This document shows, in pieces, positions 2,955 through 53,666 of a stretch of DNA of 64,000 nt. The DNA lies in the NCBI GenBank assembly GCA_964542745.1, contig CAZIVR010000001.1:43041-107040 (forward strand), written 5' to 3'. This DNA comes from an uncultured bacterium. Its GTDB lineage: Bacteria; Eisenbacteria; RBG-16-71-46. The number at the start of each line of letters is the position of its first letter. The first letter of the stretch is position 1. The translations under genes and the position numbers were made by a program. The notes under the pieces were generated by a model, which saw only the letters and a program-made list of their open reading frames with translations, searched no databases and was not told where the DNA came from.

Positions 2955-3908
2955 TCAGCGGGCGACGACCACCCTCGCGGCGCGCGCGACGCCGCCCCGG
3001 CTCACCCTCGCGAAGTAGAGCCCGGGAGCGAGCGGCGCCCCGGCCGAAAGCTCCACCGCCTGCCGACCCGGCCCCGCCGCGTCCAGCGCGCGGGACGCCA
3101 CCCGGCGGCCGGCGAGGTCGAGCAGCTCGACCTGCGCGGGCCCCGCGCCCGGCAGCGACAGCTCGAGGCGCACCCGGCCGCCGTGCGCCGGGTTCGGGGT
3201 CGCGCGCACGGCGAGCGCGCCCCGGGCGAAGTCTCCGTCCACGCCGGTGGTCTGGGTGGACACCTCGACCGAGACGGCGTCGAGCGCCCACGACTCGTCG
3301 TCCCCGCCCTGCCACTGGGCGGCGGCCGGACCGGAGATCGCGCTGATCGTCCACAGCACCACCACGGAGTCGGCGGTGTGCGGAATGTCGAGGAAGGCCG
3401 GCTCCGCGCCGAGGTCGTAGGCGCGGTCGCGGTGGTAGTAGCAGCAGCCGCTGAAGCCCAGGTTGGTGCCCATGCTCAGGATCGCGCCGGGGGGCGCGGG
3501 GTGATAGCTCGTCGTGTCGCCCGTCGCGAGCTGGAACCAGTGGTTGAACCGAAGGGAGTCGTCCACCCGGATCTGCATCAGCTCGGTGCCGTCCCACGAG
3601 TCGATCAGCCCGAGCAGGAACTTGACGCTGAGCCGGTCGTGGGGCGGGAGGTTGCGCACGGTGAGCGTGGTCGGGAGGATCGGGACGCTGGTGTAGCGGA
3701 GGAAACTGCCGCCGAACTGACGCCCGGCAGGACCGAGTCCCGCGAAGCCCTGGACGCCGGTCAGGACCGCGCCTGGCGCCGAGAACTCGGGGGGCACGCC
3801 GCTCTCGAACTGGGTCGAGAACACCACCACGGGGGAGGCGAGCGCCGGAGTGGCCAGCAGGCCCGCGGACAGGAGGAGGGGAAAGAGCCTCGAGGTGAGG
3901 AAGCGCAT
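2955..3908 (-). CDS. Secreted protein with FlgD-Ig/T9SS-CTD-like C-terminal domain
   Basis: GGAGG upstream of ATG 3908; signal peptide MRFLTSRLFPLLLSAGLLATPALA; C-terminus ATPNP...DLAGRRV...PGLYFARV. Confidence 0.8.
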   Translation of the reverse strand: MRFLTSRLFPLLLSAGLLATPALASPVVVFSTQFESGVPPEFSAPGAVLTGVQGFAGLGPAGRQFGGSFLRYTSVPILPTTLTVRNLPPHDRLSVKFLLGLIDSWDGTELMQIRVDDSLRFNHWFQLATGDTTSYHPAPPGAILSMGTNLGFSGCCYYHRDRAYDLGAEPAFLDIPHTADSVVVLWTISAISGPAAAQWQGGDDESWALDAVSVEVSTQTTGVDGDFARGALAVRATPNPAHGGRVRLELSLPGAGPAQVELLDLAGRRVASRALDAAGPGRQAVELSAGAPLAPGLYFARVSRGGVARAARVVVAR

Positions 3909-4057
3909 CGGTGCCTCCGCGAACGGGGGGTACTGCATCCCGCGCCGGGGTGCGAAACGTGGCGCGGGCCTGCTCCGTGAGACGACGCCGCGCCCGGGGC
4001 GTCAGCGCCTCCGCCCCGGAAATCATGGCCCGGCTTGCGGCGCCGGGGAAAACGATT

Positions 4058-4668: not shown

Positions 4669-7284
4669 TCAGTTCCCGCGGACGACGGTTCGGGTTCGAG
4701 TCTCGAGGCCGGAGGAGACGCGCGCGAAGTAGACGCCGGCGGGAACCCGATCGCCGCGCGAGCTTCGGCCGTCCCACTCGAGCACGTGCCGCCCGGCGGC
4801 AAGACGTCCGGATGCGAGCCCCGCGACGCGCCGCCCGGAGAGGTCGTAGATCGCGGCCTCGACCGCGCTTGGCGCGGGTAGCTCGAGAGTCAGCCGAACC
4901 TGCCCGCGACTCGGATTGGGCGCGGGCGCCGACAGCTCGAGCCGCACCGCCGACGGGGGAGCCGGCACGTCGAGCGGGAGCTGCGTGAGATCCAGCGTCC
5001 ACTGGGAGCGCCCGTGGGTCGCCGCGATCAGCCGTCGGGTGCCCCCCGCGGAGTAGAGCGAGAGGTCGAAGACGGTCTGGACCGGCATCCCGGTTCCGAG
5101 CGGGAACCAGCCCGCGCCCTGGTTGCGGCTCGCGTAGACCCCGACGTCGGTCGCGAGGTACAGCGACTGGGTGTCGGTCGGGTCCACGACGATGTCGTTG
5201 GCCGGGACGTCCGGCAGGTTGGCGGAGATCGAGGTCCAGCTCGTTCCCCGGTTGGCGCTCCGGTAGACGTGCGAGAGGTGCTCGTCCTGCCCGAAGCCGG
5301 AGAGGGTGACGTAGACCGCGTTCGGGTCCGAGGGATCCGGGGTCACGCGCGTCACGTAGCGGAGCGGCAGCCCGGCCGAGACGTTCTCCCAGGTTCCGCC
5401 CGCGTTCTGGGAGCGCCACACCCGGCCGTCGTCGGTCCCCGCGTAGTAGAGGGCGGTGTCGGCGGGGGAGATCGAGAGGGTGGTCAGCGTGCCGTAGACC
5501 AGGCTCGAGGGCGGGGCGCCGCTCAGGTCGCCGCTCACCGGCACGTAGCTCGAGCCCGAGTTGGTGCTCTTGTAGACCCGGTGGCTGCCGACCAGCAGGA
5601 TCGCCGGGTTCGCGGGGTTCATAGCGATCGGCGTGTTCCAGTTGTAGCGGTCGCCGCTCGAGAAGCCCGACGGGGTGATCCACGAGGACCCGCCGTTGAT
5701 CGAGCGGCGGAGCCCCGAGCGGTCGCAGCAGTACTGCCACTCGGCGTAGATCACGTTGGGATCGGCCGGGCTCACGATGGTCTGGAATCCGTCGCCCCCG
5801 AGGATGATCGTCCACCCGCTCGGCGATCCGGTCGTGATCATGGTGCTGTTGTCCTGCGTGCCCCCCAGCAGCCGGTCGGGGTTCGAGGGATCCACGCTGC
5901 CCGCGTAGAACTGCGTGATCGGCGTGTCGAGCGACTGCGTCCACCCGACGCCCCCGTTCAGCGAGGAGAAGAACCCGCCGTCGTTGCCGAGGTAGACGCG
6001 GTTCTGGTTCGACGGGTCGATCCACACGCCGTGGTGGTCCACGTGGGTGCCGCTCTGGATGCTGGTGAGCGTGGTGCCGCCGTCCAGCGAGCGCAGGAGG
6101 CCCACCCCCTGCACGTAGACCCGGTTGGGGTCGGTCGGGGAGACGGCCACGTCGCCGAAGTACCAGCCGAAGCCGCCGAAGTTGTTGGTGAAGGTGGAGC
6201 CGCCGCGTGGGCCCCAGACGTTGCCGCCGTCGGCGGTGCGGTACAGCGCGCGGCCGGTGTAGCCGCCGATCGCCCCCGAGATGATCTGGGCGTACACCAC
6301 CGAGGGTTGCGACTTCGCGATCGCGAGCCCGATGCGGCCGAGGTTGTCGTCCGAGGCCGGCAGCCCGCCGGCGAGCTTGGTCCAGGTGGTGCCGCCGTTG
6401 ACGCTGCGCCAGACGCCGCCGCCGGGCCCGTAGGCGCGCCGGTAGGTGGAGCGCCGCACCCGCTCCCACGTGGCGCAGAACATCGTCTCGGGATGGGCCG
6501 GATTGATCACCACGTCGCACACGCCGGTGCTGTCGTTCACGAACAGGACCTTGGTCCAGTTCGCGCCCCCGTCCTCGCTCCGGTAGAGGCCGCGGTCGGG
6601 GCTGGTCGAGAACTGGGTGCCCATCGCCGCGACGAACAGGCGCTGGGGGTTCACGGGGTCCACCGCGATGCGCGCGATGCGCCGCGTCTCCGCGAGCCCG
6701 AGCGACGTCCAGCTCGCGCCGCCGTCGGTGGTGCGGAACACGCCGGCCCCGTCGTAGGAGTCCACCGACGAGTTGGCCTCGCCGGTGCCGACGTAGACGG
6801 TGTTCGCGTCGGTCGGGTGCATTGCGAGCGCGCCGATCGAGAACACGCCCATCTCGTCGAACACCGGCGTCCAGTTCACCCCGGAGTTGGTGGACTTGAA
6901 CACGCCGCCCCCGGCCGCGCCGAAGTAGGCCGGGTTGCCGCCCGGGGCCGCGACCACCGCCGTGACGCGGCCGCCGATGTTGAACGGGCCCGCCTGCACC
7001 CACGCCGGGCCCGCCAGCGTGCCGTTGCCGCGCCCGCGCGCCGCGCGCGCCCGGTCGGCCCGGGCCTGGTCGTAGGCCGCGATCCACTTCTCCTGGGGCA
7101 CGGTCTCGAAGGGAAAGGCCCGCTGCGCCATGAACCACTCGTTCGGGACCTTGCCGGCCTCGGACTTCTCGCGCGGGCCGTCGGCCGGGACGCCGGCGGC
7201 CCGCGGACGGTGCAGGAGCAGGCCACCGGCGGCGGCGGCGACGAGCAGCACGGCTGCGGGAACGAGGGCACGGTCGAGGCGCAT
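4669..7284 (-). CDS. Secreted VPS10/BNR-repeat (GH74/sortilin-like) beta-propeller protein with FlgD-like CTD
   Basis: 871 aa; repeated S/T-x-D/N-GG-x-T/S-W Asp-box motifs; N-terminal signal/anchor; C-terminus PAPNP...DLSGRRV...WDGRSSRGDRVPAGVYFARV. Confidence 0.88.
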   Translation of the reverse strand: MRLDRALVPAAVLLVAAAAGGLLLHRPRAAGVPADGPREKSEAGKVPNEWFMAQRAFPFETVPQEKWIAAYDQARADRARAARGRGNGTLAGPAWVQAGPFNIGGRVTAVVAAPGGNPAYFGAAGGGVFKSTNSGVNWTPVFDEMGVFSIGALAMHPTDANTVYVGTGEANSSVDSYDGAGVFRTTDGGASWTSLGLAETRRIARIAVDPVNPQRLFVAAMGTQFSTSPDRGLYRSEDGGANWTKVLFVNDSTGVCDVVINPAHPETMFCATWERVRRSTYRRAYGPGGGVWRSVNGGTTWTKLAGGLPASDDNLGRIGLAIAKSQPSVVYAQIISGAIGGYTGRALYRTADGGNVWGPRGGSTFTNNFGGFGWYFGDVAVSPTDPNRVYVQGVGLLRSLDGGTTLTSIQSGTHVDHHGVWIDPSNQNRVYLGNDGGFFSSLNGGVGWTQSLDTPITQFYAGSVDPSNPDRLLGGTQDNSTMITTGSPSGWTIILGGDGFQTIVSPADPNVIYAEWQYCCDRSGLRRSINGGSSWITPSGFSSGDRYNWNTPIAMNPANPAILLVGSHRVYKSTNSGSSYVPVSGDLSGAPPSSLVYGTLTTLSISPADTALYYAGTDDGRVWRSQNAGGTWENVSAGLPLRYVTRVTPDPSDPNAVYVTLSGFGQDEHLSHVYRSANRGTSWTSISANLPDVPANDIVVDPTDTQSLYLATDVGVYASRNQGAGWFPLGTGMPVQTVFDLSLYSAGGTRRLIAATHGRSQWTLDLTQLPLDVPAPPSAVRLELSAPAPNPSRGQVRLTLELPAPSAVEAAIYDLSGRRVAGLASGRLAAGRHVLEWDGRSSRGDRVPAGVYFARVSSGLETRTRTVVRGN

Positions 7285-7396
7285 GCGGTGGCTCCAGAAG
7301 GGGAGTGGTCACGCCGGGTGCGGAAGCCGGTCTCAACCGCGATTCGAGGCGCGCAAAGTGTAGCGAGGGGCGGCGCGCCGCGTCCACCGCGGATTG

Positions 7397-7918
7397 CTAG
7401 CGTCGCGCCAGGGGAATCACCAGCTTGAGGGCGCTCAACGCCTCGGAGAAGGCGCAAACCTTCACGTCCACGAGGCCCGCCGCGAGGGCCGCGGCCCTCA
7501 CCATGTCCTCCTTGAGCGCGGGGCGCCCCTTCGGCCACACCACCCAGATCATCCCGTCGCGCGGCATGCGGCGTTCGAGCGCCGCGAGCCGCGCGAGGTC
7601 GCGCGGGGATTCCGCCCGCAGGAGGACCATCGCCGAGCCCGGCGCCACCCGGCCGCGGCTCACGTCGCCCGCGCGCGCCTCGAGCTCCGCGAGGAACCCG
7701 CCCTGGTCGTCGAGCCCGAGCACGCTCACGTTCATGCCGGGCTTCACCCCGAGCTTGTCGATCGTGGGCTTGCCCGAGTAACCGGCGAGCGGGGCCGGAC
7801 GATTGGCGGGCGAGGCGTCCTTGCCGGCGCCCCGCTTCGAGCGCGCGGGCCCCGCAGGTCCCGCGGGCCCGGAGGGCCGGCGCGATTTCACAGGCCGCTT
7901 CGCCCGGGCGCGTTTCAC
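7397..7918 (-). CDS. DUF3052-like protein
   Basis: AGYSGKPTIDKLGVKPG...GMIWVVWPK...GLVDVKVCAFSEALSALKLVIP. The GTG start overlaps the ycaQ stop (GTGA). Confidence 0.8.
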   Translation of the reverse strand: MKRARAKRPVKSRRPSGPAGPAGPARSKRGAGKDASPANRPAPLAGYSGKPTIDKLGVKPGMNVSVLGLDDQGGFLAELEARAGDVSRGRVAPGSAMVLLRAESPRDLARLAALERRMPRDGMIWVVWPKGRPALKEDMVRAAALAAGLVDVKVCAFSEALSALKLVIPLARR

Positions 7919-9264
7919 GTTCCGGCCGCCCCGCCGGCCATCGCCGGCTCGGGCCGCTCGGCGCGCGGCGTTTCGCGCGGATCGGGCCGCGCCGCCGCGA
8001 GCGCCGCCCGCATCGGTGGGGCCAGCGCGCGAGGCGACACGGACCCGAGCGCGACTTCGGAAGCGCCCACGAACTTGGCCAGCGACCAGGCGGCGGCCGC
8101 GGCGCCGGCCAGCGCCGCGTCGCGGTCGGGCTTGCCCCAGTGCGCGACCGGGGGCGCGACCCCTTTCGCGAACCACGTCTCGAAGTGAAGGGCGCGCATC
8201 TCGAGGACGCCGCGCTCGCGGTGGGTCTTGAAGTCGGCGCGGCCGATCAGCGATCCGTCGTGGAGGAGCGGGAGCACGTAGTAGCCGAACTTGCGCTTCG
8301 GGCCGGGGACGTACACCTCGATCTTGTAATCGAAGCCGAACAGCGCCTGCACGCGCTCGCGGTGCCACAGGAACGAGTCGAAGGGGCAGAGGAAGGTGGC
8401 GCCGCGCGAACCCGCGCGCCGGCGCGCGGCGCGCTCGAGTGCCGGGAGGTCGCGGGTGAGCGCGAACCAGCGCGCGGCGCTGCCCTCGAACACGACCGGC
8501 GTCACGTCGCCCGAACGCACCAGGCGGCGCAGCTCCTCGCGGCGCCAGCCCGAGGGCGTGCGCGGGAAAGTGAGGTAGAGGCGCAGATCGGCCTCGGTGG
8601 CCGCACCCATCGCGTGGAGCGAGCGTTCGACGTGCCAGCGACGGAACGCCGCGTCGTCGAGCGGCTTCGATGCCATCGGACCGGGAAGCACGCGCTCGAT
8701 TCGGTCGAACCGCTTCTGGAAGTGGCGCCGCGAATGCACGGTCGTGACTCCGGTCATCCACAGGTAGTCGAGCGCGTGCGAGGCGGGCTTCCAGTTCCAC
8801 CAGCCGGAGCTGCGGTGCCCGGGCGGGGGCTCGAAATCGGAATTGCCGAGAGGCCCGCGCTCGCGGATCGCGTCCGAGACCTTGCGGAGCGTGAGCCGAT
8901 GCCGCGTGAGCCACGAACCCCACCCCTTGGAGCGGCGCGTGAAGTCGAGCATCGCGCGCCGCCACGCCGGGAAGTCGCCGGTCGCCACCAGGCACGCGGC
9001 GTGGGCCCAGTACTCGAACAACACGCGGCGGCGGTAGACCAGCCGGTCGAGCACGGCGCGGTCGTAGGGGCCGAAGCGGCTCCATAGCGTGAGGTGGTGG
9101 GCGCGGTCCAGCACGTTGATCGAATCGAGCTGGAGCCCGCCCGCGTTGCCCACGAAGCCGGCGAGGCTCGCCGCCGTGAGCCGCCGCGAGCGTGGCCGGT
9201 CGAGCTGCTGGCGCTCGAGGAACAGCGCGGCCGCGGCGCGAAGGGGAAAGCGGGGCAGGGACAT
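7915..9264 (-). CDS. ycaQ: YcaQ/AlkZ (HTH_42) family crosslink-repair DNA glycosylase
   Basis: LQLDSINV (Q-phi-D motif typical of the YcaQ-like branch), LFEYWAHAACL, LCPFDSFLWHRER, FDYKIEVYVP, KRKFGYYVLPLL. Confidence 0.9.
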   Translation of the reverse strand: MSLPRFPLRAAAALFLERQQLDRPRSRRLTAASLAGFVGNAGGLQLDSINVLDRAHHLTLWSRFGPYDRAVLDRLVYRRRVLFEYWAHAACLVATGDFPAWRRAMLDFTRRSKGWGSWLTRHRLTLRKVSDAIRERGPLGNSDFEPPPGHRSSGWWNWKPASHALDYLWMTGVTTVHSRRHFQKRFDRIERVLPGPMASKPLDDAAFRRWHVERSLHAMGAATEADLRLYLTFPRTPSGWRREELRRLVRSGDVTPVVFEGSAARWFALTRDLPALERAARRRAGSRGATFLCPFDSFLWHRERVQALFGFDYKIEVYVPGPKRKFGYYVLPLLHDGSLIGRADFKTHRERGVLEMRALHFETWFAKGVAPPVAHWGKPDRDAALAGAAAAAWSLAKFVGASEVALGSVSPRALAPPMRAALAAARPDPRETPRAERPEPAMAGGAAGT

Positions 9265-9369: not shown

Positions 9370-10818
9370 TTACGAGCGCGCGTGGGCTGATCGTGCTCCT
9401 GCGGGCGCCGCGGGGTCGCCCGGCGCCGGGTGCGAGCGGCCGAGCAGTTCGACGAGGTGCAGAAACTCGACTCGCGTCCCTCGGGCGGCGCCGCCGCGCT
9501 TCATGTGGAGCAGGCAGCCGGGGTTCGACGCCACCACCACGTCGGGCGCCACGCGCTCGATCGCCTCGAACTTGGGCTCGAGCTGGCGGTCCGCCATCTC
9601 GGGGTGCGTGAGGTTGTAGATCCCGGCGCTGCCGCAGCACCAGTCAGCGTTGGGCAGCTCGACGAACTCCACGCCGGGAAGCGAGCGCAGCAACCGGCGC
9701 GGCGCTTCGCGCACCTTCTGCGCGTGGGCCAGGTGGCAGGCGTCGTGGTAGGTGACGCGTACGGGGCGATCGGACGCCGCGCCTGCCGCGCGCGGCGGCC
9801 CGGGCGGCTCGGGCAGTCCCACCTCGGCCAGCACTTCCGAGACGTCGCGCACCTTTGCCGAGAAGGCGAGCGCTTCCGCCGCGAGCCCGTCGTGTTCGAG
9901 CAGGTGACCCGCCTCGCGCAACGCCGCCCCGCAGCCCGCCGAGTGCGAGACGATCGCGTCCACCGGGGCGTCGCCGGCGAAGGCCGTCACGTTGCGACTC
10001 GCCAGCCGTTTCGCATCGCCGCGCAGCCCCGCGTGCGCGTGGAGCGCGCCGCAGCAGGTCTGGGAGCGCGGCACGCGCACCTCGCAACCCGCGATCACCA
10101 GCAGCCGGACCGTCTCGCGGTGAATGTGCGGGAACAGCGGCTCCATCACGCACGAGGTATGGAACGCGACGCGCAGCTTCGCGGTCCCCGCGGGCCGGAA
10201 CACCAGCGCGTCCGCGCGGGTCTCGATCCGCGCCCCGGCCGGCAACTGTGCGGCGACCCGCTCGAGCGCGCGCTCGCGGCGCGGCGCGATGTCGGGTGTC
10301 ATCTCGAGGCCCTGCGCCGCGAAGCGCGGCAGCAGGCGACGCACCGCCGGGACGCGCATCAGCGCGCCGATCGGCCCGCGCTGGCCGAGCCGCAGCAGGT
10401 CGGCCGCGAAGTGGGTGCGCGCAGCATGCGGCAGCACCGATCGCAGCACCCACTCGCCGAGCATGCGCATCGGCGTGCCTCTCAGAACGCGGCGGTTGAT
10501 CTGGCCGCGCGTCTGTTCGAGCAGCCGGCTGTAGGGGACCCCCGCCGGGCACACCGTCTCGCAGGCGCGGCAGTCGAGGCAGTTATCGAGGTGCTCGACC
10601 AGCGGATCGCGCGGCTCGATGCGGCCCTCGGCGAGCCCGCGCATCAGGTAGAGCCGCCCGCGCGGCGAGTCGGGCTCGATCTTGAGCGTGCGGTAGGTCG
10701 GGCACGCCGTGAGGCACAGCCCGCAGTGGATGCAGGTCTGGAGGTCGGGAAGCGCCGGAGGATCGTCGGCGTCGAACCAACTGGAGAATTCTCGGTCAGG
10801 GATCGGGCCGACGACCAT
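9370..10818 (-). CDS. glcF: Glycolate oxidase iron-sulfur subunit
   Basis: Two 4Fe-4S motifs (CIHCGLCLTACP, CLDCRACETVCP) and two CCG domains (CCGALH, HDACH...WCCGSAG). Start at ATG 10818 inferred. Confidence 0.88.
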   Translation of the reverse strand: MVVGPIPDREFSSWFDADDPPALPDLQTCIHCGLCLTACPTYRTLKIEPDSPRGRLYLMRGLAEGRIEPRDPLVEHLDNCLDCRACETVCPAGVPYSRLLEQTRGQINRRVLRGTPMRMLGEWVLRSVLPHAARTHFAADLLRLGQRGPIGALMRVPAVRRLLPRFAAQGLEMTPDIAPRRERALERVAAQLPAGARIETRADALVFRPAGTAKLRVAFHTSCVMEPLFPHIHRETVRLLVIAGCEVRVPRSQTCCGALHAHAGLRGDAKRLASRNVTAFAGDAPVDAIVSHSAGCGAALREAGHLLEHDGLAAEALAFSAKVRDVSEVLAEVGLPEPPGPPRAAGAASDRPVRVTYHDACHLAHAQKVREAPRRLLRSLPGVEFVELPNADWCCGSAGIYNLTHPEMADRQLEPKFEAIERVAPDVVVASNPGCLLHMKRGGAARGTRVEFLHLVELLGRSHPAPGDPAAPAGARSAHARS

Positions 10819-10945
10819 GAGCGAACCATACCATCGCCTCAGCCCGTGAACCGACGGGAGGGGCGACGGCAGGTGCCCGGCTCCGCTGCGATCGCTCAGT
10901 AGCCTCGCGGGTCTTGGGACGCTCAAGTGCGTCTAGATTGTCGTT

Positions 10946-13900
10946 TCACGGCAACCTCGTGACTCTTCGCTCCGCAACGAATCCTCCTGCCGTGATGCGG
11001 CACAGATAGACGCCCGCGCCGGCACGTCCACCTGCATCGAGCCTTCCGTCCCACATCGCCGAGTGACGCCCGGCCGGCAACTGCCGGTCGAGTAGCTCGG
11101 CCACGCGGCGGCCCTGTACATCGAAGATCTCGATCCGCACGCGGCTCGCCCGCGGCAGGTCGAAGCCGATCGTGGCCGAACTCGCGAACGGGTTGGGCCG
11201 GACCGGATGGAGCGCGAACTCCATGGGCGCCGCCGCCACGTCCGACGCGGGCTCGCGCCCGGAGACGGGCCCGCGTGAGGGGCCGCGCGCCCCACTCGCG
11301 AGCGCCGCTCCCGGCACCCGCACCACGAACAGGCAGTCCTCGCCCTCGCCCGGCGAGGTTGCGGGGGCAAAGCCGATCGTGAGTGTGTCGCCGGCCACGA
11401 AGTCGGCGGCGGCCGAGCCATCGGCCGCGCCTGAGAGGTCCCCGAGCCGCGAGTGGTTCGCACCCGTGAGCGCGTAGCGCCTGGGTGCCAGCACCACCGA
11501 CTCGAGCGTCGCCCCGGCCGGGAACACCAGCCGCCCCATCCCCGGCAGCGCGCGCACCCCGGCGCGGCCCGGCAGGAGCGGAGTCGTCACGTCCGTCACC
11601 CAGCCTTCGGCCTCGCTAAAGCTCTCGGCCACCATCGCCCGTTCGGTCGCGGCGAGCCGCGCGGGATCCTCCGCGAAGTCCTCGATCGTGAGCTGCCAGC
11701 GCGGCTCCGCCTCGCCCGCGTGCCCGGCCACGAGCCGCGAGGTAGTGGCGGCACTCGCGAGCGCGTGGCGCTCGGCCAGTCCCCGGAGGGCCGTCGCGCC
11801 GCGCGCCGGGGCGGATGGATCGGGCACGCCGTCGCCTTCGCCCCGGGTCCGCTCCGCCGAAGCCCCGGCGCCGCTCCCTCCGCACGAGGTGAGCGTCCCG
11901 AACTCGGCGTAGGCGAGCGGCGACCAGTGCCCCGACGTGCTGCGGGTGCGGCCTGCCACGTATACCAGCGTGCCCGGTTCCAAGTCGGTGAGAGTCCCCG
12001 CCGTCTGCGAGGTCCCCCCGGTGGCCGGGTCCGGCACGCCGGGGATCAAGCTCGCCGCCGCGAAGTTGGACGCGGAGATCGGCGCCAGCGACCAGCGCAC
12101 CTCGTACTCCTGCGCCTTTCCCGAGCAGCCGGAGTCCCCGGGGGCCGCCCAGCGCAGTGGCCCGATCGTGCTGCACGTGATCAGGTCCGCGGTGAGGTCC
12201 AGCTCGTCGGGGGCCGGGGTCGTGGAGGAGTTCACCCGGACCCAGCGGGCGATGGAGGGCACGTCAGCGCTCTGCGAGGTGCCGAGCACGAACAGCAGGT
12301 AGTCCCCGGGTGGCGCAGCGTCCGGGCTATCCGGGGTCGTGAGATGGAGCCTTGCCGGGGATGACTTCTTCGCGAGGATGGTGAGGGGGATGAACCGTTG
12401 GTTCATGTCCATCGAATGGGTGGTCGCACCGGGACGCATCAGGCAGGCGCTCTGGATGCTGGCGGTGTTGTCCACGCACACCGTGAACGCCGTGCCCCAG
12501 GTGATCTCCGCCGGTGCGCCCTGGATCTGCGGCCGCGTGGTGATCGGGTTCCCGCCCGAGTCGAACAGGTACGGCGGGCAGAAGAGCTGCGCCAGGCGCT
12601 TGTCGGCGTCGGCCTGCGTGTCGCCGGGACCCTGATTCTCACCCCCGGCGCTCAGCACGCGCCCGTCGGGAAGCAGGATGGCGGTCGAGTGGTCACCCCG
12701 GATGGTTCCCTGTTCGGCCAGCCGGTCCGACCCCGTCATGCTGGTCCAGGTTCCGCCACCGCTGGTTCCGGGAGTCCAGATCTGCGGCCGCTTTACCGGC
12801 CCCGCGCTGACGTTGTCGAAGACGTTGTTGCCGCCCACGGCGAGCACCTTGCCGTTGGGAAGCAGGACGAGATTGTGGTGCGACCGTGGCGCCATGTCCT
12901 CGGAAGCGACCCACGCGCTGTCGAAGCTCGCCGTGTTGAAGGTGATGGTGCGACCGGTGATCGCGTTGCCGGCATCGCTCCCGCCGGCCAGCATGATCTT
13001 CCCCGGGAGGTACTGGACGCCAGTCTTGGGGCGGAACAGCAGGCGATTGTCGTGCAGCGTGTCCCATTGGGCCGCCTGCCCGGTGGCCGGGAAGTCGCTC
13101 CAGTAGGCGCGCATGTCGTCGGTATTGATGTTGATCACCCGGCTGCCGCCGCTGTCGGCGCCCGGCACCACGAAGAGGGGCGGGTAGGAGCCCTGGAACA
13201 TCCGAGCGTTCGAGTGGAGGGTCCACTGGTTCGTGGCGGGGTCGTAGACCTCGGGGCTGCGCGCGATCTCGGCGAAGGGATCGAGCGAGGCCGTGTGGCC
13301 CCTCAGGCTGAAGCCGAGGTCGGACCACTGCTTCCAGGAGTTGTCGCTGGCCCAGGGGTCCACGATGTAGCTCTTCGAGTCGGCCGGCACGACCGAGCCG
13401 CCGGAGGCTCTCTCGCCGCCATACACGTAGAGCCGCGACCCGCCCTGGTTCCGGTCGAGCACCGCGCTGTGCCGCGCGCGGGCTCCGGGGGAGGTGCCGC
13501 CACCGGAGAGCAGCTTCCAGCCGTACCTCCCGTCGCCGAAGAGCCACAGCGCCCACAGCTCGTCCGAGTAGCTCAGGTCCCCGAGCTTGCCGCCATAGAG
13601 CAGGGCGGCGTGGGCGTTCGAGTGGCTGGCGTCGAAGTTGCGCGGCTTGTTGTCGGCGCTGAGCGTGTGCCACAGGCGGGCGGCGGGCTGGCCGTCTCCG
13701 AGTTCCTCCCGCACCATCGTGTGCCAGGTCGGGTTCGCCGGGTCCGAGGGGTTGAAGCGCAACTCGTAGACGTTCTGGTCCGTCGGCGTGCCGTTATGGC
13801 TCGTGGCGCCGCCGAACACGATCATGCGCTTGCGCAGCGTGTCGCTCACCATGGTCTCGTCGTAGATCGCCGTGTGACCGTAGCGGGCTGCCGGGCCGCC

Positions 13901-14995
13901 GGTGGCGCCGATCGCGTTCCAGGTATAGGTCAGGAACGTCGGACTGAAGGCGATTCGGCGAGCGTGGCTCAGGAGGTTGCCGCCTTCATCGAGCCCTCCG
14001 AATACGACGAGGGTGAGGTTCGAGTCTTTGACCGCGATCGCCGAGTGATCGGTCCGGCGAGGCTGTACGCCGCCCCCGGGCTGGATCTTGACCCAGTTGT
14101 ACGTCTGGCCGGCCCCGAGCTGGTTGCGATCCTGCATCAGTCGCCACAGGTCGTTCGCGGGTCCGGTCGCGGTCGTTCCACCGAACACCGTGAGCCCGTT
14201 GAACCCGAGGATCCCGGTCATCTCGGTCGCCGTGTGTCCGCTGCGCGGCGCGGGGCGGCCGTCCGGTCCCGCCGTGGGCAGCACGGGAGTGTCCCACTCG
14301 CCGTCGGGAATGGGCTCGAACCGCTGCAACGAGTCCGCAACGGGGCTCGCGGGCGGCGAGCCATTGCGGTCGCCGAACAGCACGCGATGCCGGGGGTGCT
14401 GGTTGCCGCTCACCACCAGGCCCTTGCCGGATCGCAGCGTGGCGACCGACGCGTACCAACGCCAGTCGTTCATCAGGGACGGCACCGACCAGCTCCCGAT
14501 CCCGCTGGATCCCGAGCCCGAGTGGAACACGTGCGCCTTGTTCTCGCCGTATTGCTTGGTCACCGGATGGGTGCCGCTTGCGAACAGAACCGCGCCATTG
14601 TCGCCGATTGCGGCGTGCCCGCTGCAGAACAGGTCCATGCTGGCGGTCGGCGCGTCGAGCTGCGCGAAGTTAGCGTCCGGGAAGTCCGAACATCCGTCGT
14701 TGCCGGGTGTCCAGCCCCACTGGCCGCCCAGCATCACGTCGGGCCCAAGCAGCTGCTTGTGGAACCAGAGGACGCGGCTGTGGTGCGGGTTGCCGTCGCC
14801 CTTCAGCAGCAGGAGGTGCACGGCGTAGCGTTCGCTGTGGCCGCGGCTCCAGTCCCGGGTCGGAGACCACGCGCCAAGGTCGGCCGCGGCAAGGCCGACC
14901 ATGACGGCCAGCGAGGCGGCAATGCCGGCAAAGTAGGCGAGGGAGAGTGGGCGAACTCGGAACCCTGACAGGACAAGGCGAGACGGACGCGACAT
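10946..14995 (-). CDS. Secreted galactose/glyoxal oxidase (AA5)-like Kelch protein with DUF1929 domain, Fn3-like domain and FlgD-like CTD
   Basis: DLFCSGH, WRWYAS, RGDHSTAILLPDGRVLSAGG, RPGATTHSMDMNQR, APPGDYLLFV; internal extra Kelch repeats; C-terminal RPNP...DVQGRRV...WDG. Confidence 0.82.
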   Translation of the reverse strand: MSRPSRLVLSGFRVRPLSLAYFAGIAASLAVMVGLAAADLGAWSPTRDWSRGHSERYAVHLLLLKGDGNPHHSRVLWFHKQLLGPDVMLGGQWGWTPGNDGCSDFPDANFAQLDAPTASMDLFCSGHAAIGDNGAVLFASGTHPVTKQYGENKAHVFHSGSGSSGIGSWSVPSLMNDWRWYASVATLRSGKGLVVSGNQHPRHRVLFGDRNGSPPASPVADSLQRFEPIPDGEWDTPVLPTAGPDGRPAPRSGHTATEMTGILGFNGLTVFGGTTATGPANDLWRLMQDRNQLGAGQTYNWVKIQPGGGVQPRRTDHSAIAVKDSNLTLVVFGGLDEGGNLLSHARRIAFSPTFLTYTWNAIGATGGPAARYGHTAIYDETMVSDTLRKRMIVFGGATSHNGTPTDQNVYELRFNPSDPANPTWHTMVREELGDGQPAARLWHTLSADNKPRNFDASHSNAHAALLYGGKLGDLSYSDELWALWLFGDGRYGWKLLSGGGTSPGARARHSAVLDRNQGGSRLYVYGGERASGGSVVPADSKSYIVDPWASDNSWKQWSDLGFSLRGHTASLDPFAEIARSPEVYDPATNQWTLHSNARMFQGSYPPLFVVPGADSGGSRVININTDDMRAYWSDFPATGQAAQWDTLHDNRLLFRPKTGVQYLPGKIMLAGGSDAGNAITGRTITFNTASFDSAWVASEDMAPRSHHNLVLLPNGKVLAVGGNNVFDNVSAGPVKRPQIWTPGTSGGGTWTSMTGSDRLAEQGTIRGDHSTAILLPDGRVLSAGGENQGPGDTQADADKRLAQLFCPPYLFDSGGNPITTRPQIQGAPAEITWGTAFTVCVDNTASIQSACLMRPGATTHSMDMNQRFIPLTILAKKSSPARLHLTTPDSPDAAPPGDYLLFVLGTSQSADVPSIARWVRVNSSTTPAPDELDLTADLITCSTIGPLRWAAPGDSGCSGKAQEYEVRWSLAPISASNFAAASLIPGVPDPATGGTSQTAGTLTDLEPGTLVYVAGRTRSTSGHWSPLAYAEFGTLTSCGGSGAGASAERTRGEGDGVPDPSAPARGATALRGLAERHALASAATTSRLVAGHAGEAEPRWQLTIEDFAEDPARLAATERAMVAESFSEAEGWVTDVTTPLLPGRAGVRALPGMGRLVFPAGATLESVVLAPRRYALTGANHSRLGDLSGAADGSAAADFVAGDTLTIGFAPATSPGEGEDCLFVVRVPGAALASGARGPSRGPVSGREPASDVAAAPMEFALHPVRPNPFASSATIGFDLPRASRVRIEIFDVQGRRVAELLDRQLPAGRHSAMWDGRLDAGGRAGAGVYLCRITAGGFVAERRVTRLP

Positions 14996-15194
14996 GGCGG
15001 CCTCCGCTTGGCATGACGTGGTGGACGATCAAAGAACCACGCGGGCCGTCGCGAAAGTCGTACCGGGATGAGGAACCTCGGCGGCGACGCGGAATGAAGA
15101 AAGGCTGGATCCACCCCGGGCACTGTGTCAACGTCTTTATCGCTTCCGGCCCCTCTTGGGGTCGGGTGGACATTCACTGAAGGACACGTTCTCG

Positions 15195-17174
15195 ATGATG
15201 CCCCGGCTGACCCCATCACTGGCCCTGGGGACCCTCCTGGCCACGACTTCTGCTCCCACCTCCGCCCTGGCTCAGTGGCAGCCAGACGGCGTGGCGGTAA
15301 GTGGGGCCTCGGGCGGGATCAACCTGGTGATCGCGGACGGCGAAGGGGGTGGCTACTTCGGGTGGCGCAACGGCGCCAACGCCGGCGATGTCTGGATTCA
15401 GCGGCTGGACGCGTTCGGACTCCCGCCCTTTGGCTGGCAAGCGGGCGGAATCCCCTTGGCGCTTCTCCCGGAATCTCAAGATCTCGTCGAGATCACTCGT
15501 GACGGCACCGGCGGCCTGCTGGTGCTCTGGGAGCACAACATCAACGACGCGCCGACCAGTGCGGATCTCTTCGTCCAGCGCGTGCTTGGCGACGGCTCGA
15601 TCGCTCCCGGTTGGCCCGCGCCTGGCCTCCGGATACTCGCTCCCGGACAGCAGACTCTCTCGGGAATCGCCTCGGATGGCGCGGGCGGAGCGTACATCGT
15701 GTGGCAGGACGACCGTGCCTGGGCCACTCGGCGCTACGACGTGTACGCGCTCCATCTGCTTGCCGATGGCAGCATCGCGCCCGGCTGGCCCGCGGATGGG
15801 CTCCCGATCGCGGCACTTCCGGGACACAACGCCGGTCCGCTCATTGTCTCGGATGGAGTCGGCGGGGCGTTCATCCTCTGGGCCGACGATCGCAACAACC
15901 CGGGCGGCGTGGGGGATACTTACGGCGTGCGGATCAACGGCGACGGCACGCTGGCCCCGGGCTGGGTCGCGAACGGCAATCGGCTGACCGTGCTCCAGCC
16001 ACGCCGGGGTCTGGTGCCCGACGAATCGGGCGGGATCTACCTGTGGACCACCAATGCGGGCGCCACGCCGGGCTTCGACAACGAATACTTCCTCTACCGG
16101 TTCACGGCCGCGGGCGCGCCGTCACCGGGGTGGCCCGCGAACGGCGTGCTGCTGTGCAGCGTGCCGGGGGACCGGGCCGCCACCTCGATGGAGCCGGACG
16201 GACAGGGCGGGGTGCTGCTGGCCTGGTACGACTACCGGCCGCCCTACGACCAGAGTTGCGGGGAGATTTTCGCCCTGCGGGTGCTGCCGAGCGGAGCGCG
16301 GGCGCCGGGCTGGAGCGCGAACGGATCGCTGGTGAGCGATCCGACCAACTCGACCTGCGAATACACGCCGGGAATCACCCGGGACGAGATGGGCGGCGCG
16401 TACATCGTGTGGACCATGAACGGGCCCTCCCAGGTGCAGCACCTGACCGCGAGCGGCCTGCCCGCGCCGGGCTGGCCGCCCTTCGGGGTGAGACTGGCTT
16501 CGTCGGGGGCGCAGAACGATCCCCAGATCGCGGCCGATGGCGAGGGGGGTGCGATCGTGGCGTGGTCGGAGGCGTGTTGCGGGCGGCTGCGGGTGTGGGC
16601 GCAGAAATACGTGCCGACCGGGATCGTGGCGGCGAGCCTGTCGCTGGTGAGCTCGGTCGCCGAGCGCGGGCGGGTGAGCCTCGAGTGGTTCGCGGCGAAT
16701 GGCGCCGGGCTCGCGGCCACGGTGGAGCGCCGCGAGGGCGACGAGGCATGGCGTCCGCTCGCGAACCTCACCGCCGATGGCACCGGGCACCTGCGCTACG
16801 AGGATCGGGACGTGACGCCGGGGGCGCGGTACCGCTATCGCCTCGCCTACCGCGACGGAGGAGCGGCGATGCACAGCGCCGAGACGCTCGTGGAGACGCC
16901 GGCAGCACTGGAACTGGCGCTCGAAGGGTTCCGGCCCAACCCGGCGGTGGGGCCGCCGCTGGTGTCGTTCACGCTGGCGCGATCCGCCCACGGCACGCTC
17001 GAGCTCTACGACCTCGCCGGGCGGCGCATGGCATGGCGCGACCTCGACGGGCTGCCTGCTGGCAGGCACGTGGTGCGGTTCGAGAGCCACCCGTCGCTGG
17101 CGCCGGGAGCGTATGTCATACGGCTCACGCACGCTGGCCGGGTGACCGCGGCTCGAGGCGTCGTGGTCAGATGA
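15195..17174 (+). CDS. Secreted repeat beta-propeller protein with FlgD-like CTD
   Basis: GAAGGA RBS before ATG 15195; signal peptide; about seven repeats of DGxGGx(Y/F)xxW...PGWPxxG; C-terminus RPNP...DLAGRR...PGAYVIRL. Confidence 0.8.
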   Translation: MMPRLTPSLALGTLLATTSAPTSALAQWQPDGVAVSGASGGINLVIADGEGGGYFGWRNGANAGDVWIQRLDAFGLPPFGWQAGGIPLALLPESQDLVEITRDGTGGLLVLWEHNINDAPTSADLFVQRVLGDGSIAPGWPAPGLRILAPGQQTLSGIASDGAGGAYIVWQDDRAWATRRYDVYALHLLADGSIAPGWPADGLPIAALPGHNAGPLIVSDGVGGAFILWADDRNNPGGVGDTYGVRINGDGTLAPGWVANGNRLTVLQPRRGLVPDESGGIYLWTTNAGATPGFDNEYFLYRFTAAGAPSPGWPANGVLLCSVPGDRAATSMEPDGQGGVLLAWYDYRPPYDQSCGEIFALRVLPSGARAPGWSANGSLVSDPTNSTCEYTPGITRDEMGGAYIVWTMNGPSQVQHLTASGLPAPGWPPFGVRLASSGAQNDPQIAADGEGGAIVAWSEACCGRLRVWAQKYVPTGIVAASLSLVSSVAERGRVSLEWFAANGAGLAATVERREGDEAWRPLANLTADGTGHLRYEDRDVTPGARYRYRLAYRDGGAAMHSAETLVETPAALELALEGFRPNPAVGPPLVSFTLARSAHGTLELYDLAGRRMAWRDLDGLPAGRHVVRFESHPSLAPGAYVIRLTHAGRVTAARGVVVR

Positions 17175-24019: not shown

Positions 24020-24451
24020 GGCGGGCTCCGGTCGGACGGATCGCGGCGGCGTTCGAGTCGCGGAGAGTAGCGCGGGGGGCCGGTGGGTCCAAGCCGGGAG
24101 ACACCGCGCGAGACCCGGGCCGGCTCCCGGCCGTGGGCGCGACGCGGGTGTCGCCCGCGCCGACACTTCGGCCGGCGGGAACGGGGGCATGAACGACTTC
24201 ATCTCGGGCGGCCGGGCCCGGACGCCGGGCGATGCCCCCGGAAATCGCGGCGCCGGCCGGGCGATTCGGCGTGCGAATCGCGACGACGTCCCGGCCCGTC
24301 CCTCCCGGCACCGTGCTTGCGTTCCCGGAGGGTGAGGCGTGAATCTGCGGCCCCTCGACCCGGGGACGCGGCGTGCGCCCTCGGACACGGACGCCCGGCC
24401 GCCCTTCGCGGCGGCGAGCTTCGCAGCCTTCGACCCACTGGCGGATCCTTC

Positions 24452-27400
24452 ATGCACCTCGCGAACGCGCACCCTTCGGGACTCGGGCGGCTGGGAAATC
24501 ACGCGCGATCCCCGCGTCATTCGGCCACGACCTCGGGGCTACCGGCCGGGACCCTCGCGCTGGCCGTGCTTTTCGCAATCCTCGCGGCGCCGGCCTCGTT
24601 CGCCGACACCGTGCTCCACCGCGTCAACGTGGGAGGGGCGCCACTGGCCGCGCTCGACGCCGGGCCCGCGTGGAGCGAGGACTCGAACGCGAACCCCTCC
24701 TCGTACGTGAACTGGGCGCAGTCCGGGAACTGGTTCGGCGGCACCGACCAGCCGATGGGCGCGCCGCACCCTTCGGTGCCCGCGTACGTGCCGGCCGCGC
24801 TCTTCGACACCGAACGCTGGGACTGGGCGGACGCCGACGACCAGACCTGGGAGTTCCCGGTCCCGAACGGAACGGTGCGCGTCAACCTGCTGTTCGCCGA
24901 GGGCTGCAACTGCGCGAACTTCGCGAACGGCCGGAAATTCGACGTGGACCTGGAAGGCGCGCAGGTGCTCGACGATTTCGACCAGTTCGCCACCTTCGGC
25001 AGCTTCACGCCGGGCATGCAGACCTTCCTCGTGAACGTCGCCGACGGGGGACTCACCCTCAAGCTCCGTCACGGGCCCGCCAACGCGCCCTCGATCCGCG
25101 GCATCGAGGTGGTGCAGGTGGACGTGAGCCAGACGCTCCAGTCGTCGCGCACCTCGATCGGCTTCGGCACGGTGTTCGTGGACTCGACCTCGGGCCCGCA
25201 GGGCGTCACGCTCACCCACCTCGGCTCGGGCGGCGATCCCTCGATCACGATCACGGGCGTCTCGGTCACCGGGCCCTTCACCCACACCCTCGCGCCCCAG
25301 ACGCTGCTGCCGGGACAGAGCCGCAACTTCAACGTGAAGTTCACGCCCACGGCGGTGGGCCCGGCGAACGGCACGCTCACCGTGACCCACTCGGGCGACA
25401 ACAGCCCGATCGAGATCGCGCTCGCGGGGACCGGCGCCAACGTGCCGCCGATCGGATTCGGGAAGTCGTGGCTTCAGGGGCTGGTCGCGGCGGGCCCCAC
25501 GTCGCTCCAGTTCGGGCCGGACGGGCGGCTCTACATCGCCGAGATCAACGGCGCCATCCTCGTCGCCGACGTGGTCCGCACCGCGCCCAACGTCTATCAG
25601 GCGAGCCTCGCCCACATCCTCGACCACGTGAAGAACATCCCGAACCACGACGACGACGGCTCGCTCAACCCGAGCCTGGACACCCGCCTCGTCACCGGCC
25701 TGCTCGTGACCGGCACGCCGTCGAACCCGGTGATCTACGTGACGAGCTCGGACTCGCGGATCCAGGAGTCCGGCTTCCCCGGCTCCGACACCAACTCGGG
25801 GATCCTCTCGCGCCTGACGTGGAACGGGTCCGCCTGGGAGAAGCTCGACCTGGTGCGCGGGCTGGCGCGCTCGCAGGAGAACCACGCCTCGAACGGGCTC
25901 GCCCTCGACACCCTCACGAACACGCTCTACATCGCCTCGGGGGGCCACACCAACATGGGGGCGCCCTCGAACAACTTCTACTTCCTGCCCGAGTACGCGC
26001 TGTCCGCCGCGATCCTTTCGGTGGACCTCGACGCGATCGGCGAGACCACCTACGACCTCCCGACGCTCGACGACGAGGACCGGCCCGGAGTCAACGACGC
26101 GAACGATCCGTTCGGCGGCAACAAGGGCAAGAACCAGGCGCGGATCGTTCCCGGCGGGCCGGTCCAGGTTCACTCCTCGGGCTACCGCAACCCCTACGAC
26201 GTGGTGTGGACCGGGGCCGGGCGCCTCTACACGATCGACAACGGCCCGAACATCGCGTGGGGCGGTCCCCCGGTCGGGGAAGGGCCCGGCGACGGCTGCA
26301 CGAACGCCATCAACGAATCGAACAGCGCGACGCTGAACGACAACCTCCATCTCATTCCCGCGGCCGGCTACTATGCCGGTCATCCCAACCCGACGCGGGC
26401 CAGCGTCGCCAACACCTTCAACGCGTCCAACCCGCAATCGCCGGTCCCGGCCGGCAATCCGGCCGAGTGCGACTACCTCGAGCCGGGCGTGGACGGCTCG
26501 CTCGCGTCGTGGCCGTACTCCACCAACGGGCTCTGCGAGTACCGCGCCTCGAACCTCGGCGGCGCGCTTCAGGGCAACCTGCTCGCCGCGAGCTTCAACA
26601 ACGACGTCCAGCGCATCGTGCTGAACGCCGCGGGCGACAGCGCCGTCAGCGTGGGGGCGCTCTTCTCCAACGTCGGCAACATCCCGCTCGACATCACGGC
26701 CCAGGGCGACGAGGGGCCGTTCCCGGGCACGATCTGGGTGTGCAACCTGGGCTCGGGGCTGATCGCGGTGTACGAGCCCTCCGACTACGACGGCAACACC
26801 AGCACCTGCACCGGCGCTGACGACGACCAGCTCGACGAGGACGGCGACGGCTACAACAACGCCGACGAGATCGACAACGGCACCAGCCCGTGCTCGGCGG
26901 GGGACTTCCCGTCCGACTTCGACTCGGACTTCCTCTCCGACCTGAACGATCCCGACGACGACAACGACGGCTGGCTCGACACCGTGGACCCGTTCGCGAT
27001 CGACGCCTCGAACGGCGCCACGCCCATGCCCGTCCTGTACTCGTGGGACGCGGGCAACCCGGGCTTCGGCCTGCTCGGCGTGGGCTTCACCGGGCTCATG
27101 ACCGACAGCCTCACCGACTACCGGCTCCAGTACGACCCGGTCCAGATGACCGCGGGCGGGGCCGCCGGCAAGGTGACGATCGACAACGTGCCCGCGGGCG
27201 ACGCGCTGGGCGCGCAGAACGACCAGCGCTACGCGTTCCAGTTCGGAGTCGCCACCGACTCCACGAGCCCGGTGTTCCTGGTGCGGACCCGCGCCTCGAC
27301 CCCGTACTTCAACGGCAGCCCGCCGAGCGGCTTCCAGTCGCAGGGGCTCTACGTCGGCGACGGCGCCGACGACGACTACCTGAAGATCGCGATCGCCCGC

Positions 27401-28036
27401 GACGGCGCCGATCCCGCCATCGAGGTGGTCCACGAGGTGGACGGCGTGCCGACCTCGTTCGTGATTCCCGTGCCCGGGCTGCTCGCCGGGACGGGCGTGG
27501 ATCTCCAGTTCGTGGTGGACCCGCTGGCCGCCACGATCCAGCCGCGCTACGCCTACGCCGGTGGCCCGATCCAGAACGCCGGCGCGCCGGTCGCGCTGGT
27601 TCCGGGTTCGAAGCTGCACTCGGCGGTCGTCGGCTCGCCCGCGATGGCGGTCGGCGTCATCGCCACGTCGCGGGGCGCCACGCCGTTCGCCGCGACGTGG
27701 GAATTCATGGACGTGCTACCGATGTCGGGGGTGTCGGTCGAGGGGGCCGTCCGCCCCACGCGCGTCGCCCTCGGGCTCCCGCGCCCCAATCCGTCGCGGG
27801 GCTCGGTCGCGCTGAACCTCTCGCTCGGCTCGGCGAGCCGGGTGGAGGGCGCGGTGTTCGACGTGGCCGGCCGGCGCGTGCGGACCCTCATCCGCGGCAC
27901 GCTCGGGCCCGGCGTCCACCCGCTGCGCTGGGACGGACGCGACGACTCGGGCCGCGCCGTGGCGGCGGGCGCCTACCTCGTGCGCCTCGACGCGGGCGGG
28001 GTGGTCGAATCCCGGCGGGTGCTGATGCTGCGGTGA
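24452..28036 (+). CDS. Secreted malectin + Ig-like + GSDH/PQQ-propeller-like + Asp-rich Ca-binding repeat protein with FlgD-like CTD
   Basis: RVNVGG...VRVNLLFAE...RKFDVDLEG (malectin); IGFGTV...FTPTAVG (Ig-like); GPDGRLY...ENH...GYRNPYD (GSDH-like); DxDxDG repeats; PRPNP...DVAGRRV...WDGRDDSG. Confidence 0.8.
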
Positions 28037-38697: not shown

Positions 38698-38782
38698 GAC
38701 ATGCAGCCTAGCATCAGGGCTCGCAGCGAGGCGCAATGTGGCGGCCCGGAAATCGAATTGGAGCCGGCGAAATTGACTCTGC

Positions 38783-53209: not shown

Positions 53210-53246
53210 GCGGCCGCGTCCCGGACCCGGGTCCGGAGGAGGGAAG

Positions 53247-53648
53247 ATGCTGAAGCGGCTGCTGGGAGTGATCCTCGGTCTCGTGGTGGGCATGATCGTG
53301 GTGGCGCTGATCGAGGGACTGGGCCACGCGCTGTGGCCGCCGCCCAAGGGCGTGGACCTGCGCGATCCGAAGCAGCTCGCCGCACTCATGCCGAGCCTCC
53401 CCATCGGCGCGCTCCTCGCCGTGGTGGTGGGCTGGGCGCTCGGAGCCTTCGCGGGCGGCTGGATGGCCGCGACGATCTCGCGCGACGCCCGGATGGCGCT
53501 GGCCGTGGGTGCCCTGCTCCTCTGCCTCGGCGTCGTGACGATGATCCAGATCCCGCACCCGCTCTGGATGTGGGTGGTCGGCGTGGCGCTCCCGCTGCCC
53601 GCCGCCTGGCTGGGCTCGAGGTTCACGCCCGCGCCGCCGGGAGCATGA
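53247..53648 (+). CDS. Hypothetical membrane protein
   Basis: GAGGG RBS; 133 aa with about four TM helices. Confidence 0.75.
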   Translation: MLKRLLGVILGLVVGMIVVALIEGLGHALWPPPKGVDLRDPKQLAALMPSLPIGALLAVVVGWALGAFAGGWMAATISRDARMALAVGALLLCLGVVTMIQIPHPLWMWVVGVALPLPAAWLGSRFTPAPPGA

Positions 53649-53666
53649 GGGGAGCTCCCGAGCCCG

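Follow-up and report, generated by a model that had tools for sequence, protein, structure and literature searches.

Gene and domain architecture

A 64,000-nt stretch of DNA from an uncultured high-GC bacterium of the Eisenbacteria lineage (contig CAZIVR010000001.1; hereafter the window) contains, on its minus strand, a complete open reading frame (ORF) of 1349 aa (10946-14995 in the ORF list), encoding a homolog of the copper radical oxidases (CROs). Members of this superfamily (galactose oxidase, glyoxal oxidase and GlxA; CAZy AA5-like) bind one copper, form a Tyr-Cys radical and use O2 to oxidize alcohols or aldehydes, with H2O2 as product. By homology and fold, its membership in the CRO superfamily is far beyond chance. 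Alignments show four of the five canonical first-shell residues of the CRO copper site to be present and the axial Tyr to be Asp. In the AlphaFold2 model, the catalytic part is a seven-bladed propeller with an E-set domain, and a complete six-bladed Kelch propeller is contained in the B-C loop of blade 3.

A family hidden Markov model match spans the ORF end to end, beginning at the ATG at 14995, and its G+C content at third codon positions (0.89) is in the range of real genes in the window. Among the Pfam matches, GO-like_E_set (PF09118) scored 79.5 bits (cut-off 25) over aa 821-921, and Kelch_KLHDC2_KLHL20_DRC7 scored 86 bits from aa 240. The match to Glyoxal_oxid_N (PF07250) covered aa 117-200 only and, at 21.9 bits, was below the gathering score of 37.5; the profile is interrupted by the inserted propeller. 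The NCBIfam equivalog model for GlxA (NF052501) gave 127 bits against a cut-off of 800 and matched aa 580-921 only, indicating that by this model the protein is not a GlxA ortholog.

Residues 40-925 were modeled with AlphaFold2 from a 43-sequence alignment, and the model had a mean predicted local distance difference test score (pLDDT) of 91.9 and a predicted template modeling score (pTM) of 0.91. The strand pattern begins with blades 1 and 2 and strands A and B of blade 3, with Tyr181 just before strand A and the LVVSG motif (aa 193-197) as strand B. These are followed by the insert of ~380 residues, which forms six four-stranded blades in a ring closed by its first and last strands, and then by strands C and D of blade 3 (EVYD and WTLH) and blades 4-7; Asp768-His769 immediately precedes strand A of blade 7. 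In the E-set domain, His860 is located on a hairpin. The insertion point lies between model strands 153-156 and 543-546.

An earlier note, made from the sequence alone, had described ~380 aa of extra Kelch repeats with six motifs between LVVSG and PEVYDP, and the sequence confirms this, with six R-x-x-H Kelch motifs preceding PEVYDP (aa 581-586). Its reading of the protein as a double propeller was borne out by the model, by the Pfam Kelch match and by Foldseek searches of the PDB, in which the catalytic part matched GlxA and galactose oxidase (E about 1e-24 to 3e-23), and the insert matched the six-bladed Kelch domains of KLHDC2 and LZTR1 (TM 0.64-0.73, normalized to the target).

A word-indexed search returned 33 proteins of the same architecture, of which just one, from a Candidatus Eisenbacteria bacterium, is named. 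When 1.84 billion cluster representatives were scanned exhaustively with phmmer, 10,436 matches resulted, 876 of them below 1e-30. Most of the top 150 matches span query residues 2-885 mostly or fully in a single stretch, and hence contain the insert; the rest are fragments. The double-propeller domain order is common to about 170 relatives, which carry generic names in the databases ('galactose oxidase-like domain-containing protein'). This shared domain order and the pTM of the model rule out a chimeric assembly or a tandem fusion. Among species-representative genomes, full-length double-propeller copies occur, where the host is named, in Eisenbacteria metagenome-assembled genomes (MAGs), and single-propeller CROs were found in Acidobacteriota, Actinomycetota, Chloroflexota and other phyla.

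Over about 300 aa, the insert shares 27-33% identity with secreted Kelch proteins that stand alone, some of which come from named Eisenbacteria, and these stand-alone proteins are a plausible source of it. Many of them carry the same C-terminal tag as the oxidase (see below).

Asp at the axial position of the predicted copper site

The top phmmer match in the PDB was GlxA of Streptomyces lividans (E about 1e-21), with DLFCSGH paired to DLFCTGH, RGDHS to RNYHS, and ATTHS to ASTHV. Fusarium galactose oxidase (residues 224-639, 100% identical to 1gof_A in a PDB search) was aligned with the query and its relatives using MAFFT, which matched C228 to C124, Y272 to Y181, W290 to Q199 (H200 being adjacent), Y495 to D768, H496 to H769, and H581 to H860. 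The full-length MAFFT alignment smears the galactose oxidase blades over the insert, and only the anchors near the ligand motifs were used. Trp180 matches the position of GlxA Trp288, a second-shell stacking residue, and the GlxA segment arWYptl is visible in the alignment. A Trp directly before the cofactor Tyr serves as the second-shell stacking residue in GlxA (W288-Y289) and in FgrAldOx (W509-Y510) (PMC13094651). In sequence, the second shell of the present protein is of this GlxA/AA5_1 type.

The coordinates given in the earlier note for the Cys, the cross-linking Tyr, both His residues and the Asp are all correct on the sequence, and its proposal that Asp replaces the axial Tyr is upheld by the alignments with GlxA and Fusarium galactose oxidase. 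The note had also considered that a different Tyr might occupy the axial position. Such a misalignment was ruled out, as HMMER with GlxA and MAFFT with galactose oxidase concur in placing Asp768 there. No Tyr elsewhere specific to the Asp-containing relatives was found when groups were compared in the family alignment.

The axial Tyr is conserved in all characterized CROs (PMC11611005; PMC13094651), and reviews and recent structural papers describe all five first-shell residues as conserved in every characterized member and regard this Tyr as the indispensable general base. The published mechanism has the axial tyrosinate bind copper weakly and, as general base, take the proton of the bound alcohol, and the Y495F variant of galactose oxidase retains copper and the radical but is inactive (PMC11611005). 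Recent work places spin density on the axial Tyr as well (PMC13094651).

Contigs of five runs from sand and bioreactor metagenomes contain the whole window, and sludge runs cover 70-84% of it. Across 12400-13000, contigs of four runs from three studies showed 0 differences at depths of 4.5-23x. Asp was present in 8 further sequence clusters from other samples, and two orthologs from other samples use GAT, not GAC, at this position. A sequencing error converting TAC to GAC, raised in the earlier note as a possible single-genome event, was ruled out by the identical contigs, the other clusters and the GAT codons. The conservation of the Asp in orthologs, which that note had left to be checked, thus extends to 9 clusters with both codons.

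The axial column could be scored confidently for 155 of the 173 sequences in the family alignment, and contained Tyr in 139, Asp in 9, His in 6 and Leu in 1. Two more non-Tyr calls (one Leu, one Thr) came from truncated fragments and were discounted. The non-Tyr share of ~10% is an overestimate, since sequences were sampled by their similarity to an Asp-type query. As the family mostly keeps the axial Tyr, the inserted propeller and the Asp are not linked, and on this alignment the double propeller is a family trait independent of the Asp. The remaining site residues vary little: Cys is found in 134/135 sequences covering the Cys124 column and Tyr in 140/141 covering the Tyr181 column, the Trp180 column contains Trp in 124/141 and Tyr or Phe in 16, and the His769 and His860 columns are essentially invariant. 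Single-propeller relatives have the axial Tyr in 108/108 sequences of one sample, and genome loci gave 82 Tyr versus 1 Gly. The Gly exception (RAGHS, L049:2408-2422) is in a Phycisphaerales MAG (JAZFYE010000099.1) and, judging by the length matched, probably has a single propeller.

The nine Asp sequences are the nearest relatives of the query (44-76% identity over the catalytic region), and Cys124, Trp180, Tyr181, His769 and His860 are kept in every one of them that covers those columns. In a neighbor-joining tree from which the axial column was left out, they cluster together, adjoined by a three-member His group (RTHHS: P0005, P0007, P0008), with no Tyr sequence inside the combined Asp plus His group. 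The Asp group was recovered in 37/100 bootstrap replicates, the combined Asp and His group in 40/100, and the His group alone in 98/100; up to 3 Tyr sequences intrude in about two thirds of the replicates. The other His sequences (P0175, P0182, P0205) and the Leu sequence (P0116, RNLHS) are placed elsewhere in the tree and so are independent changes, His occurring in at least two separate parts of it. The remaining copper ligands are kept in all of these His and Leu sequences, the RTHHS group included.

Conservation was examined at the 69 positions where Tyr-type members are at least 95% conserved. Of 513 residues at these positions, 496 are kept in the Asp group, and the axial site accounts for 9 of the 17 misses. 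The sequences thus give no sign of general decay in the Asp group, and the pattern fits selection for a specific residue rather than relaxed drift. Few other changes track the Asp group, namely His200 (at the Trp290-loop position, aromatic in most members), Pro606, Thr741 and Ala/Ser118, and these may reflect shared ancestry alone.

Table 1. Domains and copper-site residues of the oxidase homolog, neighboring genes, and other ORFs of the window ending in a FlgD_ig-like domain
Feature	Position	Strand	Basis or remark
GGAGG, Shine-Dalgarno-like motif	15001-15005	-	5 nt 5' of the ATG; sequence reading
N-terminal segment, aa 1-38	14882-14995	-	Arg-rich, then a 22-residue hydrophobic stretch ending AAA
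Catalytic propeller, blades 1-2 and strands A-B of blade 3, aa 39-200	14396-14881	-	AlphaFold2 strands, weak Glyoxal_oxid_N match, GlxA alignment at DLFCSGH
Cys124 in FCSGH, equivalent to galactose oxidase Cys228 (thioether partner)	14624-14626	-	HMMER alignment with GlxA, MAFFT alignment with galactose oxidase
Trp180-Tyr181 in RWYAS, Tyr equivalent to galactose oxidase Tyr272 and GlxA Tyr289	14453-14458 (Tyr 14453-14455)	-	Alignments
Inserted six-bladed Kelch propeller, aa 201-579	13259-14395	-	Pfam Kelch, AlphaFold2 strands, Foldseek, six Kelch motifs
Catalytic propeller, strands C-D of blade 3 and blades 4-7, aa 580-820	12536-13258	-	HMMER versus GlxA and CgrAAO, partial NCBIfam GlxA match, AlphaFold2
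Asp768 in RGDHS, at the axial Tyr position (galactose oxidase Tyr495, GlxA Y501)	12692-12694	-	Codon GAC; alignments
His769, equivalent to galactose oxidase His496 (equatorial)	12689-12691	-	Alignments
GO-like E-set (DUF1929) domain with His860 on a hairpin, aa 821-921	12233-12535	-	PF09118, AlphaFold2
His860 in ATTHS, equivalent to galactose oxidase His581	12416-12418	-	Alignments
FN3-like beta-sandwich (stalk module 1), aa 933-1035	11891-12199	-	Weak Pfam fn3 match, AlphaFold2 of the C-terminal part, Foldseek FN3 arrays
Second beta-sandwich module, aa 1086-1228	11312-11740	-	AlphaFold2; low-confidence Gly/Ala-rich linkers on both sides
FlgD_ig-like C-terminal domain resembling the type IX secretion system (T9SS) C-terminal domain, aa 1266-1349	10949-11200	-	Pfam FlgD_ig, TIGR04183, window scan, Foldseek PorU
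GlcF-like Fe-S/CCG-domain protein	9370-10926	-	Begins 20 nt after the oxidase stop codon
AlkZ-like DNA glycosylase	7915-9264	-	PF06224, E 6e-63; second gene downstream of the oxidase
ORF with FlgD_ig-like end	24071-28033	+	Window scan
ORF with FlgD_ig-like end	55611-60062	+	Window scan
ORF with FlgD_ig-like end	15072-17171	+	Window scan
ORF with FlgD_ig-like end	54825-55607	+	Window scan
ORF with FlgD_ig-like end	4672-7308	-	Window scan
ORF with FlgD_ig-like end	2958-4001	-	Window scan

Secretion, C-terminal tag and genomic context

The Arg-rich and hydrophobic N-terminal segment is a predicted signal peptide or membrane anchor. The C-terminal part (aa 926-1349) was modeled separately with a pLDDT of 78, and consists of the FN3-like module, the second beta-sandwich and the FlgD_ig-like domain between low-confidence linkers, with dips in pLDDT at aa 1040-1081 and 1231-1253. 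Foldseek matched this part to FN3 arrays and to PorU. The C-terminal domain scored 30.8 bits for FlgD_ig (PF13860, cut-off 27) and 22.6 bits for TIGR04183, just below the cut-off of 23.

A FlgD_ig-like C-terminal domain of ~80-90 aa also ends at least 7 other ORFs of the window, including large proteins with Malectin, NHL/Laminin_G_3 and Sortilin/BNR domains. The recurrence of this domain makes it look like a lineage- or genome-wide sorting or anchoring tag for secreted proteins, and the oxidase is probably secreted and displayed on the cell surface, as its hydrophobic N-terminal segment and FN3-like stalk also suggest. A further FlgD_ig-like copy is present at ~54848-55106 on the minus strand, near the N-terminal end of a long stop-to-stop ORF (53193-55178). 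This copy overlaps the beginning of ORF 54825-55607 on the plus strand, and the two ORFs are competing gene models.

A predicted secreted protein of 672 aa is encoded divergently upstream of the oxidase. A gene for a GlcD-like FAD-linked oxidase (37201-38736, minus strand) lies 26 kb from the GlcF-like gene. The adjacency of the GlcF-like gene to the oxidase is probably coincidental, since three other Asp-group loci lack it. Among the 29 window ORFs scanned with Pfam, none was recognized as a copper chaperone, a peroxidase or a glycan synthase, and an Rfam scan of the window gave no matches.

Elsewhere in the window, ORF 34441-35997 (plus strand) encodes a well conserved DUF4301 protein (E 4e-157), and ORF 33261-34301 (minus strand) a well conserved DUF1028 protein with a TPR tail. 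ORF 48851-51145 (plus strand) matches glycoside hydrolase family 1 in two stretches and contains a segment of solute-binding-protein family 3. The best glycoside hydrolase stretch covers the first half of the profile only, and the ORF could be a fusion or a mis-joined gene model.

Interpretation and comparison with known systems

Trp290 of galactose oxidase, which stacks on the Tyr-Cys cofactor, is located in the B-C loop of blade 3, on the copper face. Because the insertion is in this loop, the second propeller would leave the catalytic propeller on the copper face, near the cofactor. We infer that it is positioned over the active-site entrance, where it could act as a lid and/or a substrate-binding platform, much like the unrelated domain 2 of GlxA. 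Stacking on the cofactor is presumably provided by Trp180 in place of Trp290.

By standard side-chain lengths, the terminal oxygen lies about 6.5 Å from the C-alpha in Tyr but no more than about 3.7 Å from it in Asp. With a side chain about 3 Å shorter and an unchanged flanking backbone, the carboxylate would be too far away to ligate copper. The protein would still be expected to bind copper and to form the Tyr-Cys cofactor, because the other first-shell residues are kept. Asp768 could take the substrate proton via a copper-bound water or the substrate hydroxyl, and the axial copper site may be open or occupied by solvent. The redox potential, pH profile and substrate range may be shifted relative to Tyr-type paralogs, and the His of the neighboring group could come nearer to the copper than Asp. 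The altered copper coordination and possible new chemistry proposed in the earlier note are suggested by the residue change.

We lean toward the view that the protein is a working, surface-displayed copper enzyme, in which the Asp is the proton acceptor and the inserted propeller is a lid or platform. A working copper/Tyr-Cys enzyme with Asp768 as the acceptor is the most economical explanation, because the Asp lineage keeps the rest of the site. Several points weigh against it. Since Y495F is inactive despite having copper and the radical (PMC11611005), the absence of the Tyr may by itself have abolished catalysis. How far the Asp is from the copper and whether the insert sits over the active site are both derived from homology, and bootstrap support for a single Asp clade is modest (37/100). 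Beyond the weak lineage-linked changes at positions 118, 200, 606 and 741, no compensating residue was found in the Asp group. The neighbors differ in all four Asp-group loci compared, and this lack of conservation means that the context gives no clue to the substrate. No RNA run with expression evidence was found.

A more far-reaching proposal is that there is a natural CRO lineage without the axial Tyr, in which Asp or His abstracts the proton at a four-coordinate or water-capped Cu(II)-Tyr-Cys radical and the nested propeller builds a new substrate channel. We offer it tentatively, as possible but not probable. If true, such a lineage would constitute a subclass of the family that is new in both structure and mechanism.

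The Asp lineage, and the His lineage with it, may instead have lost oxidase activity, leaving a lectin- or adhesin-like surface binding protein, or a protein that only binds copper. The inactivity of Y495F would agree with this, as would the fact that Eisenbacteria-like genomes encode many secreted Kelch proteins that are not enzymes but have this C-terminal tag. We nevertheless think it unlikely, as Cys124, Tyr181, His769, His860 and Trp180 are kept in all covering Asp-group sequences, ~98% of other conserved positions are kept down to about 44-50% identity, and the Asp is fixed in 9/9 sequences with synonymous codon variation.

It is similarly improbable that the site has been rebuilt, with the Asp or His ligating the metal directly after a backbone shift to form a 2-His/1-carboxylate/Tyr-Cys or 3-His site, in a non-radical oxidase or oxygenase or with another metal. 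The axial position does switch among the good metal ligands Tyr, His and Asp, whose codons are separated by a single nucleotide, other residues are seldom found there (one Leu, one Gly), and the His-group and Asp-group sequences adjoin in the tree. However, His769 and the R-x-x-H-S-T-A-I-L-L-P-D-G-R segment are unchanged, which argues against a large backbone rearrangement, and the retained Cys/Tyr pair and stacking Trp are needed for radical chemistry only. An artefact, with the Asp as a sequencing or assembly error or the insertion as a chimera or misalignment, has a negligible chance of being the explanation. TAC and GAC do differ by a single base, and Kelch repeats can mislead aligners, but the four runs agree without a difference, the Asp recurs in 8 other clusters, about 170 relatives are alike, and the model has a pTM of 0.91.

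A natural Tyr-to-Asp lineage beside a Tyr-to-His lineage, with the rest of the site kept, provides a comparative test of the axial ligand, bearing on proton transfer, radical delocalization and redox tuning. As cofactor-free biocatalysts, CROs are valued for oxidizing alcohols, and a propeller-in-propeller scaffold with a different base could offer new substrate scope for biocatalysis. The family also adds a large uncharacterized group of predicted secreted oxidases to the poorly known Eisenbacteria. The CRO fold and the other first-shell residues were already known; the axial Asp and the nested propeller, as seen in the sequence and the predicted structure, are new to the searchable literature. 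No report of a CRO with a natural axial Asp or His, of a propeller-in-propeller CRO or of an Eisenbacteria CRO was found there. A literature search for engineered CRO variants with axial Asp or His also returned nothing relevant, the single match to 'Y495D' being a laccase.

The closest known system is GlxA of S. lividans (PDB 4UNM), the best PDB match in both sequence and fold, which is likewise bacterial and extracytoplasmic. The two proteins share the seven-bladed propeller with an E-set domain, the Cys, the Tyr, the two His residues and the Trp-Tyr pair (W288-Y289 versus W180-Y181). GlxA also has an extra domain (domain 2) on the copper face, shielding the copper (PMC11611005). They differ in the axial residue (RNYHS in GlxA, RGDHS here) and in the nature of the extra domain, which in GlxA is a small beta domain between Cys121 and Tyr289, whereas here it is a six-bladed Kelch propeller after the Tyr. 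The Cys and the Tyr are about 168 aa apart in GlxA versus 57 aa here, and because their sites differ in this way, domain 2 and the inserted propeller are independent insertions. GlxA has a cslA-type neighbor, which is absent from the loci here, and the present protein has an FN3-like stalk and a FlgD_ig-like end.

Galactose 6-oxidase of Fusarium graminearum (AA5_2, 1GOF) has the same catalytic fold, with counterparts of C228, Y272, H496 and H581 present here. It differs in having Y495 where Asp768 is found and an N-terminal CBM32 domain that is not in the present protein, and identity is about 16-18%. The 380-aa insertion is at the site of its Trp290 loop. The AA5_1 oxidases resemble the present protein in the Trp directly before the cofactor Tyr, and FgrAldOx (PDB 9N3U) was a Foldseek match (9n3u); the AA5_1 glyoxal and aldehyde oxidases, however, come from fungi, contain only one propeller and retain the axial Tyr. 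KLHDC2, LZTR1 and the stand-alone Kelch proteins, which resemble the insert, are free-standing, whereas here the Kelch propeller is nested in a loop of another propeller.

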